Of a DNA stretch of 64,000 nucleotides, positions 28,375 to 47,200 are shown in pieces; position 1 is the first letter of the stretch; the number at the start of each line of letters is the position of its first letter. Origin of the DNA: Dehalococcoidia bacterium (lineage in GTDB: Bacteria; Chloroflexota; Dehalococcoidia; Lucifugimonadales; Australimonadaceae); NCBI GenBank assembly GCA_965261385.1, contig CBDHDB010000001.1, forward strand, positions 161,145 through 225,144, in the 5' to 3' direction. The notes below the pieces were generated by a model. The model did not search any database. It saw only the letters and a list, made by a program, of their open reading frames with translations, and had not been told where the DNA came from. Position numbers and translations under genes: made by a program.

Positions 28375-29135
28375 TCTTGGCAATTGTGAGGGCCAACCGC
28401 GAGGCGCGGTCGGCCGTGTGGCGGCAGGGGCTGCTCCTCTTGGCCGGAGCCCTCGTCCTGATCGACCTCTACATGATTTTCGAGCACGCGCCGACCGAGC
28501 GCGTCATGGGGATCGTGCAGCGGCTCTTCTACTTCCACGTCCCCGTCGTCCTCACCAGCTTCATCTCGTTCGCCGTGGCGGCCGTGGGCAGCGCCGTCTA
28601 CCTGACGAGGCGCAGCCGCGCATGGGACCGGCTCGCCTACGCGTCCGCTGAAGTCGGCCTCGTCTTCTTCACCATCGCCATCATCACCGGCGCGGTATGG
28701 GCCAAGCCCGTGTGGGGAACATGGTGGGTCTGGGACGCCAACGGCACCCTCACCTTCGTCCTCTGGCTCATCTTCATCGGCTACCTCATGGTCCGCGCCT
28801 ACGCCCCCGACGCCGACCGCGGCCGCCGCTGGTCCGCCGTCGTCGGCATCATCGGCGCGGCGGCTGTTCCGTTCGTCTACAAGGCCGCGGACTGGTGGGG
28901 CGGCCTGCACCCCGAGCGCGTCACCGGCCCCGGCGCCGAGGGCTCGCTCGAAAGAGCAATGCTCACCACCCTCCTCTTCTCCTTCGCCGCCTTCCTTGTC
29001 CTCTACGTCGCGCTCATCGCCGAGCGGACCGCCCAACGCAAAGACGAGGAAACGCTCGAAGACCTACGCCGGACCATCGACGACCACTCTTCCGTCATTC
29101 CCGCGAAGGCGGGAACCTCGCAGCCCCCAGATTAG
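28371..29135 (+). CDS. ccmC: heme exporter protein CcmC, with a REP-derived C-terminal tail
   Basis: Last ~254 codons of track ORF 27291..29135. GTG 28371 overlaps the ccmB stop (GTGA). WGTWWVWD tryptophan-rich (WWD) motif. The last 16 aa (SSVIPAKAGTSQPPD) are encoded by a REP-a unit. Confidence 0.85.
   Translation: MILAIVRANREARSAVWRQGLLLLAGALVLIDLYMIFEHAPTERVMGIVQRLFYFHVPVVLTSFISFAVAAVGSAVYLTRRSRAWDRLAYASAEVGLVFFTIAIITGAVWAKPVWGTWWVWDANGTLTFVLWLIFIGYLMVRAYAPDADRGRRWSAVVGIIGAAAVPFVYKAADWWGGLHPERVTGPGAEGSLERAMLTTLLFSFAAFLVLYVALIAERTAQRKDEETLEDLRRTIDDHSSVIPAKAGTSQPPD
29093..29117 (+). repeat. REP-a palindromic element inside the ccmC 3' end
   Basis: CGTCATTCCCGCGAAGGCGGGAACC, translated in-frame as VIPAKAGT. 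The stop codon follows 18 nt later. Confidence 0.85.
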
Positions 29136-43719: not shown

Positions 43720-44913
43720 TCACCGCAACCCGTGGACGGGGAATACCAGGCGCTTGATCTCGTCCGTCTGCTCCTGAGCGTAGGCGCGGGCCTTGGCGCG
43801 GATATCGGGGGCGACCGTCGCCGTCCCCTCGTCGTCGCGCAGCCGCGGGCTTTCGAGGAAAGCGCCGGCCTCGACGGGCAGCTCGTCGGGCCAGTCGCGG
43901 CCCAGCATCGCGCCGTAGGCGAGGGTCCAGCACCGGGGCACGGCGTCCAGGTCGTAGCCGCCGCCGCCGAACGCCAGCCACGGATAGCCCATCGCGCCCA
44001 GACGCTCGACGGCGGCCATGTACCCGTGCGTGCTCAGACTCAGATGCGTGAGCGGGTCGTCCACGTAGGCGTCCGCGCCGAGCTGCGTCGCGAGCACGTC
44101 CGGCGCGAACGCCTCGATCAGCGGCGGGACCACCTGGTCGAACGCATCGAGGTAGATGGCGTCGTCCGTGTACGGAAACAGCGGCAGGTTCACCGAGTAG
44201 CCCGCCGCGTCCCCAGCCCCCAATTCGGCGACCGCGCCCGTGCCGGGGAACAGCCAGCGCCCGCTCTCATGGATGGATATCGTCATCACGTCCGTGTCGC
44301 GGTAGAAGGCGGCCTGTACACCGTCGCCGTGGTGCGCGTCGATGTCCACGTAGACCACCCGCAGCCCGCGCTTCCGCAAAGCGTTGATGGCGACGACGGG
44401 GTCGTTGAAGATGCAGAACCCGGAGGCCCACCCGCGCATCGCGTGGTGCAGCCCGCCCGCCGGCGCGAACGCCGCCGACGCCGCGCCGTCCGCTACGAGC
44501 TCCGCCGCCTGGACCGACGCTCCCGTAGAGAGCAGCGCCGCCTCGTACATCCCCGGATAGACCGGATTGTCGCCCTGTTCGGAGAACCCGTGCCCCCCTC
44601 CGTCATTCCCGCGTAGGCGGGAATCTCGTCCCCTCGCCGTTCCCCCGATAGCCGGATCGGGCTGCTCCTCGCCGCTGCTCAGACGGCGCACGACGTCGAT
44701 GTAGCTCTCAGTATGGAACGTTGTGAGCTCGTCCATCGTCGCCGGACGCGGCGCGACGAGCATCGCGCTCTCGTCCTCGAATGCCCCGTAGGCGCGGAGT
44801 AGCTCGTAGGTGCGCTGAAGGCGGACGGGGACCATCGGGTGGCCCTCCCTCAGCACGTGGCGCGATAACACCTCGTCATAGACATACGCCGCCCTACCGC
44901 CTAGATGAGTCAT
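43720..44913 (-). CDS. histone deacetylase family / acetoin utilization AcuC-like deacetylase with an in-frame REP-a insert
   Basis: 397 aa. GGLHHA, DIDAHHGDG and ...GGGGY motifs. The segment ...TARGRDSRLRGNDGGGHG... is encoded by a REP-a unit on the opposite strand. Confidence 0.85.
   Translation of the reverse strand: MTHLGGRAAYVYDEVLSRHVLREGHPMVPVRLQRTYELLRAYGAFEDESAMLVAPRPATMDELTTFHTESYIDVVRRLSSGEEQPDPAIGGTARGRDSRLRGNDGGGHGFSEQGDNPVYPGMYEAALLSTGASVQAAELVADGAASAAFAPAGGLHHAMRGWASGFCIFNDPVVAINALRKRGLRVVYVDIDAHHGDGVQAAFYRDTDVMTISIHESGRWLFPGTGAVAELGAGDAAGYSVNLPLFPYTDDAIYLDAFDQVVPPLIEAFAPDVLATQLGADAYVDDPLTHLSLSTHGYMAAVERLGAMGYPWLAFGGGGYDLDAVPRCWTLAYGAMLGRDWPDELPVEAGAFLESPRLRDDEGTATVAPDIRAKARAYAQEQTDEIKRLVFPVHGLR
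44601..44625 (+). repeat. REP-a palindromic element inside the deacetylase CDS
   Basis: CGTCATTCCCGCGTAGGCGGGAATC. Read on the minus strand in-frame as DSRLRGND. Confidence 0.85.
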
Positions 44914-45407
44914 CGCAGCCGGAGTCTAGCAAAGCGGAGCCTCAACCCCACAGGATGGAAAAGGGGGAGGGAGCGGGCTTTTCGGGAGCAAGTTGGCTTC
45001 TCAATGGGATTTTTACCCATAATGTTTGGTCCTCGTGTCGCCGGAGGGGCGCCTTCGGCTTCTTAAAGAGGGGTCCACAACGGAGTCGTCGTGGCCACCG
45101 ACCGGCGTGCTCTCATGCTGAACTCCGGCATGGCGTCAAAAGACGTGGTCGAGGTTCCTATCCGGGCCTGCAAGTGGACTATAACGAGGGGTTGACCTGC
45201 TCCGGCTTGAATTTGTCCGGCAGCACGGACCAGGACTACGCTTACTACCTTGACCACAACGGCAAGAAGCAAATCAGAAGCCGGGCCAGGCCGTTGTTCG
45301 AATGCGTGCTCCGGCAAATCCACGCCGCGGCCAACCCCGCCGGCGACTAACCGGGGAAGGCACACAGGGACGGCGAACCGGAAGAAACTACGCCGGAGGG
45401 AACAATC

Positions 45408-47134: not shown

Positions 47135-47159
47135 TGTCATTCCCGCGAAAGCGGGAATC
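47135..47159 (+). repeat. REP-a palindromic element
   Basis: TGTCATTCCCGCGAAAGCGGGAATC. Confidence 0.85.
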
Positions 47160-47175
47160 TAGGACGCCCACTTTC

Positions 47176-47200
47176 CGTCATTCCCGCGCAGGCGGGAACC
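47176..47200 (+). repeat. REP-a palindromic element
   Basis: CGTCATTCCCGCGCAGGCGGGAACC. Confidence 0.85.

Follow-up and report, generated by a model that had tools for sequence, protein, structure and literature searches.

The Rickettsia palindromic elements (RPEs) lie in frame in many unrelated proteins of one genome, at surface positions and in genes that are probably functional (Ogata et al. 2000/2002; Claverie and Ogata 2003, as far as summarised in PMC3733652). The CGTC-1 class of repetitive extragenic palindromes (REPs) is characterised by a terminal CGTC, or its variants TGTC or CCTC, an 8-bp stem that starts with A-T and has complementary A-T residues at its first and second positions, a 4-nt loop and a short, mostly CCA tail, and its authors equated it with Neisseria dRS3 and with RPE-6 of R. 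conorii (Di Nocera, De Gregorio and Rocco 2013, BMC Genomics 14:522, PMC3733652). According to the same survey, CGTC REPs have no dedicated transposase, occur mainly as head-to-head dimers, which is a habit and not a definition, and form large clusters in Neisseria and Wolbachia; CGTC repeats were listed for Proteobacteria, Chlorobi, Bacteroidetes, Spirochaetes and Thermotogae, with Chloroflexota not listed. Intragenic GTAG and CGTC REPs were described in several non-rickettsial species, many of them as dimers and encoding 20-30 aa, and the recB genes of Xanthomonas campestris and X. oryzae carry different REPs at about the same site (PMC3733652). Here, we analysed a 64,000-nt stretch of a Dehalococcoidia genome (contig CBDHDB010000001.1, positions 161,145 to 225,144 of the forward strand; hereafter, the window), in which a gene for a class-I histone deacetylase (HDAC)/AcuC-type deacetylase contains a member of a palindromic repeat family, REP-a. 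The reading we favour, with a probability of about 0.83, is that this gene carries a translated head-to-tail pair of CGTC-1-type REPs, one intact and one decayed, in its L2 rim loop. The source genome (G000) is a long-read metagenome-assembled genome (MAG) of 4.23 Mb with 65% GC, 93% completeness and 4.6% estimated contamination.

The features of the locus, with the methods behind them, are as follows (positions are those of the window; PWM, position weight matrix; AF2, AlphaFold2).

43720..44913, minus strand: class-I HDAC/AcuC-type deacetylase coding sequence, 397 aa (list of open reading frames, Pfam, orthologs, AF2 model, dN/dS)
44593..44663, plus strand: insert segment, 71 nt replacing 14 nt of the empty allele (alignment of filled and empty DNA)
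44592..44629, plus strand: REP-a unit 1, intact, with C-rich lead, CGTC tag, 8-bp stem, GTAG loop and CTCG tail (blastn-short, nhmmer, PWM)
44601-44604, plus strand: CGTC tag (direct reading)
44605-44612, plus strand: stem arm ATTCCCGC (direct reading)
44613-44616, plus strand: loop GTAG (direct reading)
44617-44624, plus strand: stem arm GCGGGAAT, forming 8 perfect pairs with ATTCCCGC (direct reading)
44626..44665, plus strand: probable degenerate REP-a unit 2, same orientation, 34 nt after unit 1 (PWM, weak nhmmer)
44569..44571, minus strand: codon of Asp115 in the GDNPVY motif, aligned with Asp104 in GEDCPVF of HDAC2 (phmmer)

The 397-aa open reading frame (ORF) matches Hist_deacetyl (PF00850) in Pfam over residues 25-333 (E = 1e-84), and with the ATG at 44913 as start its N-terminus, MTHLGGRAAYVYDE, is conserved among orthologs. 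Within this minus-strand ORF, at 44601-44625, lies the 25-mer CGTCATTCCCGCGTAGGCGGGAATC, which is translated as G95-G107 (...GRDSRLRGNDGGG...); the tagged strand of the repeat is the plus strand, and the repeat is hence antisense to the deacetylase gene. A sequence-only reading of the window had placed the REP-a palindrome in frame inside the deacetylase at these positions, with the frame and all downstream catalytic motifs preserved. The sequence, position, frame and PF00850 match agree with that claim, the ORF is open, and none of the catalytic residues H156, H157, D190, D192, H194, D281 and Y320 varies in the ortholog alignment.

The borders of the insert were defined by comparison with an empty allele, present in four assemblies (P0002, P0003, P0004 = G001) that encode 378-aa orthologs with 97% protein identity. 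The net gain is 57 nt, that is, 19 codons and a multiple of three: Q84-G107 (QPDPAIGGTARGRDSRLRGNDGGG, 24 residues in the minus-strand reading) stand in place of five residues (RMAER), so that the loop reads GEEQPDPAIGGTARGRDSRLRGNDGGGHGFS in the window protein and GEERMAERHGFS in the empty allele. The sequence on either side of the insert aligns collinearly with the orthologs. Most of the 120 best homologs have a length of 375-379 aa, and the stretch from VRRLS to GDNPV measures 25-27 aa in 111 of 118 homologs, exceeding 30 aa only within this genus. The extra segment had been put at about 25-30 aa by the sequence-only reading; it is real, it lies just before GDNPVY, and the nearest orthologs are indeed short there, while its size shrinks to a net 19 aa (24 residues replacing 5). 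An equally long and similar loop was sought in REP-free orthologs, and none was found among the 118 homologs examined. That (A)ERHGFS is found in other genera as well marks the empty allele as ancestral. We also considered the G001 empty allele as a remnant left by deletion of a REP tail, its GCATGGCGGAGCGG resembling GAATGACGGAGGGGGG, and rejected this, (A)ERHGFS being common to the orthologs of other genera.

Unit 1 scored E = 1.2e-12 with nhmmer against a profile of the other copies and 50 bits with the PWM, and in blastn-short searches the other genomic copies matched from 44587 or 44592 to 44629 only. Downstream of this border, the core of unit 2 (CGCCGTTCCCCCGATAGCCGGA, 44635-44656; consensus, cgtcaTTCCCGCGaAgGCGGGA) is the second-best PWM position of the region, with a score of -18.7 that is reached by 2.6e-4 of genome positions, and its 34-nt offset equals the shortest head-to-tail spacing genome-wide. 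The insert would accordingly be described best as a head-to-tail REP-a dimer, the second unit of which has decayed. Among five genomes of the genus, the unit-2 sequence was found only in this gene, in G000 and in G002, a separate species-level genome; the insert therefore goes back to a single event. A donor of the whole 71-nt unit was likewise sought in the five genomes, and no other copy was found.

REP-a is a large family in this genome. If up to 2 mismatches are allowed, the window contains 8 matches to the pattern ATTCCCGCNNNNGCGGGAAT where 0.04 are expected; at a limit of 1 mismatch, the genome contains 324, and the reversed control yields 0. Because these counts are far above expectation and above the control, the hairpin is not a chance palindrome. 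The weight matrix retrieved 433 units genome-wide. An alignment of 379 copies, oriented by the loop, gave the consensus CCCC-n-TCCGTCA TTCCCGC G-N-A-G GCGGGAA C/T C-Y-M-G with a conserved core of ~37 nt, and the tag positions -5 to -2 in these copies are C (333), G (349), T (326) and C (335). In the stem, the second pair, T-A, is nearly invariant, and the first is A·C, except in the ~29% of copies that have A-T; because A·C prevails, the family here is partly a 7-bp-stem variant. The loops GCAG, GAAA, GAAG and GTAG together account for >90% of copies. One subfamily ends in AATCCAGG, a CCA tail, and the major one in AACCTCG, the main tail thus being CCTCG; the deacetylase copy ends in AATCTCG. 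Judged by the sequence of its tag, stem and loop, REP-a is a CGTC-1-type family.

Neighbouring REP-a units form 115 head-to-tail pairs versus 14 others (9 head-to-head and 5 true tail-to-tail), the head-to-tail spacing starting at 34 nt with a mode at 40-42 nt, and units are interleaved with other small palindromes into mosaic arrays. A subtype with GAAA loop and CCAGG tail is regularly followed by one with GCAG loop and CCTCG tail and then by a GCGGCGCG-ACAG-CGCCGC hairpin. Further copies in the window lie within 1966-2100, 29097-29116 and 47139-47199; those at 1966 and 2081 are 115 nt apart, and those at 47139 and 47180 form a head-to-tail pair 41 nt apart. Five of the seven genomes of the genus carry abundant REP-a (146-311 exact-stem copies each), the two small genomes, G003 and G004, have hardly any, and a few other genera of the order have 10-34 copies. 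A Y1/RAYT transposase as the mobiliser of REP-a was rejected: a search for PF01797 gave no match in this 93%-complete genome, the same search being positive in 6 of 14 control genomes.

The deacetylase is one of several genes that translate REP-a. For the genome-wide census, in which codon-usage log-odds were trained on long ORFs, we required an uninterrupted frame and a coding signal on both sides of the repeat. Positions deep within coding sequence hold 3.6% of REP-a matches versus 43% of random positions, a ~12-fold depletion, and the genes found to carry in-frame copies number 12. Besides the deacetylase, these encode RecG, an acyl-CoA dehydrogenase, a kinase of the FGGY family, a Type ISP restriction enzyme, a UDG-family glycosylase, PyrB and five terminase-like paralogs. 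This count leaves out one antisense duplicate and two non-REP chance matches, in a hydantoinase-like and an oxidoreductase-like ORF, which were dropped as stems with 1 mismatch and without the tag. Pfam confirms the six named families besides the deacetylase, with the inserts lying within or between their domains; the five terminase-like ORFs had no Pfam match. REP-a is free of stops in five of its six frames, the sixth holding TGA (the complement of TCA in the tag), and four of the five open frames are used among the 12 genes, as follows.

VIPAQAGT, sense to the tag: 4 genes
RHSRE(S/G)GNP, sense to the tag: 4 genes
SRLRGNDG, antisense to the tag: 3 genes, the deacetylase among them
VPAFAGMT, antisense to the tag: 1 gene

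The inserts differ in their distribution: the one in RecG is present in all four of G000, G001, G002 and G005, and the one in the UDG-family gene is present in G000, G001 and G002 and absent from G005. Several census genes have been elaborated further. In the acyl-CoA dehydrogenase (G000:C2:442870-442930), four tandem in-frame units (PRHSREGGNPAAQS x4) interrupt the middle domain, of which Pfam matches only positions 3-51 of 97 ahead of the array. Half-units have been amplified locally, as GNDG repeats (the tag plus one stem arm) in PyrB (G000:C2:2838920) and in the UDG-family protein (C2:1948924); SVIPA half-units are likewise amplified, and the RecG of G005 (L077) has a half-unit repeat, SAIPSSSVIPASSVIPA. 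This pattern suggests slippage at the hairpin and not insertion of whole units.

The AF2 model of the deacetylase has a mean predicted local distance difference test score (pLDDT) of 82 and a predicted template modelling score of 0.87, and resembles HDAC2, HDAC3 and HDAC8 with TM scores of 0.81-0.88 (Foldseek E = 1e-33 to HDAC2/3). When aligned with HDAC2 by phmmer, the insert maps to the loop formed by residues 85-98, immediately ahead of F99-NVGED104-CPVF, and residues 90-103 of the model have pLDDT <50, in line with the proposed placement in a surface loop of the HDAC fold. Asp115, 8 residues after the insert, is the residue that we take to be the equivalent of the substrate-contacting rim aspartate of class-I HDACs (HDAC8 Asp101). 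The L2 loop is flexible in class-I HDAC enzymes. On the model, the insert is likeliest to be a floppy, disordered surface extension of this L2 rim loop, beside the active-site entrance.

Among relatives, G002, with 94% nucleotide identity over the gene, carries this insert too, differing at 1 of its 71 nt and by a neighbouring 3-nt deletion. In G005 (L006) and in the contig of P0005 (L002), the same deacetylase loop holds an in-frame insert of a second palindromic family, with the consensus CCCCCTCCCCAGCCCTCCCCCAGGATGGTGGAGGGGGTT, which has 43 copies in G005 and 0-4 in G000, G001 and G002; the insert is a dimer of +66 nt in G005 and a monomer of +21 nt in the P0005 contig. We considered whether these inserts could be decayed REP-a copies that share GACGAGA...CCCGCC, and rejected this, the CCCCCTCCCCAGCCCTCCCCCAGGATGGTGGAGGGGGTT consensus accounting for those bases. 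The sequences thus point to two different repeat families in one loop, which was therefore colonised independently within one genus. Copies of the second family in G005 often adjoin REP-a units (L081-L087). In G003 (L010/P0022), which has 2 REP-a copies, a separate 6-residue Gly-rich insertion (DGGVGGGGERQAAGQYGFS) lies a few residues upstream in the same loop. A contig of 5x coverage (L088:1150-1215) holds a repeat-bearing allele of the loop that is frame-broken in a poly-C run (C9), and its protein call, P0023 (294 aa), starts at a TTG within the insert; the break is probably a homopolymer sequencing error. The order of the genes around the deacetylase varies: G000, G001, G002 and G005 (L004, L005, L007) differ from one another upstream of it, and the downstream region is common to G000, G001 and G005 and rearranged in G002.

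Several observations weigh against the favoured reading. The resemblance of unit 2 to the REP-a profile is weak and, with nhmmer E = 1.6, not significant alone. The occurrence of the insert is at odds with the backbone of the gene: G000 agrees with the insert-less G001 at 51 of 57 informative backbone sites, yet it has its insert in common with G002, a discordance that requires either differential sorting of an old polymorphism among the lineages or recombination over a short patch. Judging from the alignment, an insert only 8 residues from the rim Asp may affect substrate access. The source is, moreover, a long-read MAG with estimated contamination. The last point bears on whether the insert could be an artefact of assembly or binning, created by a chimeric join or a mis-polished repeat, and homopolymer errors are indeed present in related assemblies. 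We nevertheless regard such an origin as extremely improbable, because the 71-nt segment recurs, in frame and at the same codon, in the independent chromosome-level assembly of G002, the flanks are collinear with orthologs on both sides, and the protein cluster identical to the window's protein comprises 6 member sequences on 2 contigs.

The remaining alternatives concern the effect of the insert. It might have inactivated or crippled the gene, the open frame being a short-lived accident of a pseudogene in the making: it sits at the active-site rim just ahead of the rim Asp, it replaced five ancestral residues that include the widely conserved E-R before HGFS, and the L088 contig holds a frame-broken repeat-bearing allele. 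Yet dN/dS outside the loop is 0.12 (G000-G002), 0.09 (G000-G001) and 0.09 (G000-G005), at dS of 0.20, 0.10 and 0.23, respectively, in comparisons that cover both insert-bearing lineages; all catalytic and zinc-binding residues are invariant; the insert is in frame in two species-level genomes about 0.2 apart in dS; and the frame break of L088, in a contig with 5x coverage, coincides with a poly-C run. We hence consider inactivation distinctly unlikely: these substitution patterns show the gene to be under purifying selection, and the insert-bearing enzyme presumably is still active. Co-option of the insert under selection, with the loop altering substrate choice or regulation or the hairpin acting in mRNA or DNA as a pause or processing site, also seems unlikely to us. 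The unit-1 stem of 8 bp is perfect in both G000 and G002, the insert adjoins the substrate entrance, and its single difference contrasts with a gene that is 6% divergent overall (dS 0.20). However, that single difference, against about 4.4 expected, is not significant (Poisson P about 0.07), and the vertically inherited REP insert in the UDG-family gene is similar, with 3 differences in 66 nt; on the same grounds, we rejected the near-identity of the two inserts as proof of recent transfer or of selection. Furthermore, the closest relatives do well without the insert, which is predicted to be disordered; its region folds no better than shuffled sequence (z = 0.30); and REP inserts in a dozen unrelated proteins suggest tolerance rather than function. 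A known RNA family was rejected for the region as well, given this folding result and an Rfam search over 44300-44950 that found nothing relevant.

The translated REP pair therefore remains our preferred reading, and the following course of events would account for it. A head-to-tail REP-a pair would have inserted into the DNA encoding the L2 rim loop of the deacetylase, after which the second unit decayed and unit 1 was kept intact. The gene would have stayed open because the repeat is stop-free in five of six frames and the length change (+57 nt) is a multiple of three, and the repeat would be translated antisense to its tag as a Gly/Arg/Asp-rich segment, probably a disordered protrusion of the surface beside the entrance to the active site. 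The loop appears to be a recurrent insertion site mainly through tolerance, with selection filtering where insertions survive. A further idea, which we find doubtful, is that CGTC REPs insert beside pre-existing CGTC-like sequence, the tag being the target, in which case the recurrence at this loop would go beyond mere tolerance. On the repeat strand, the empty allele reads CCGCTCCGCCAT, and 10 of 12 positions agree with CCCCTCCGTCAT, the tag region of REP-a, at precisely the place now taken by the unit-1 tag; this match comes from one locus. If the tag is the target, the filled and empty alleles, together with two families at one site, would give a direct handle on how CGTC REPs move.

The sequence-only reading had held that a phenomenon like that of the RPEs operates here with a different repeat family. 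The phenomenon is borne out by the in-frame copies found when the genome's ORFs and frames were counted; the difference in family is not, since REP-a has the anatomy of CGTC-1, which has been equated with RPE-6 and dRS3. Because this kinship and intragenic REPs outside Rickettsia were already published, the novelty is smaller than first thought, and the analogy with Rickettsia is closer. What the locus adds is, first of all, range: translated in-frame REPs extend beyond reduced intracellular genomes and Proteobacteria to GC-rich, multi-megabase Dehalococcoidia (Chloroflexota). For annotation, RLRGNDG, VIPAQAGT or RHSRESGNP within normal enzymes of these MAGs denotes repeat-derived loops, not domain features or errors. 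The colonisation of one rim loop by two families and the discordance of the insert with the backbone are modestly interesting in addition. The three alleles of close relatives (none, REP-a dimer, second family) form a natural experiment in a loop that borders the substrate entrance, and allow gauging how much remodelling class-I HDAC-type enzymes tolerate in their L2 loop.

As an enzyme, the deacetylase resembles HDAC2 (7kbh), HDAC3 (4a69), HDAC8 (1t64), HDLP (1c3p) and AcuC in fold, zinc ligands, His-His pair, catalytic Tyr and rim Asp motif, and differs from class-I HDACs and AcuC in a loop before the rim Asp that exceeds that of its nearest orthologs by 19 residues and is also longer than the loop of any of the 118 homologs compared. 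As a repeat, REP-a is like CGTC-1 in its CGTC tag, 8-bp stem starting with A-T, 4-nt loop and short unpaired tail, which is CCA in one subfamily, in its hundreds of mostly intergenic copies without a dedicated transposase, and in the presence of some copies, frequently dimers with 20-30 encoded residues, in frame inside genes of known function. It is unlike CGTC-1 in that its host phylum, Chloroflexota, was outside the published list, its units are mostly head-to-tail (115 versus 14) whereas the published habit is mainly head-to-head, and most of its copies have an A·C first pair, and hence a 7-bp stem, and CCTCG as the main tail. If the tag is indeed the target, insertion beside a short target sequence would also recall IS200/IS605 elements.

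With the RPEs, REP-a shares the in-frame insertion, at a surface position and in genes whose function is probably retained, and the spread over many unrelated proteins of one genome. RPE-1 is longer, at about 100-150 bp, compared with ~37 nt for a REP-a unit, and the RPE host genome is reduced, AT-rich and obligately intracellular, unlike this 4.2-Mb, 65% GC genome of an apparently free-living member of the Dehalococcoidia. As in the recB genes of Xanthomonas, two repeat types occupy about one site in related species, namely REP-a in G000 and G002 and the CCCCCAGGATGGTGGAGGGG family in G005 and P0005, although the host gene here encodes an HDAC-family deacetylase and not a repair protein, and the lineage differs. 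In-frame palindromic repeats have thus already been described in Rickettsia and other bacteria, and the deacetylase insert adds a clean new example.

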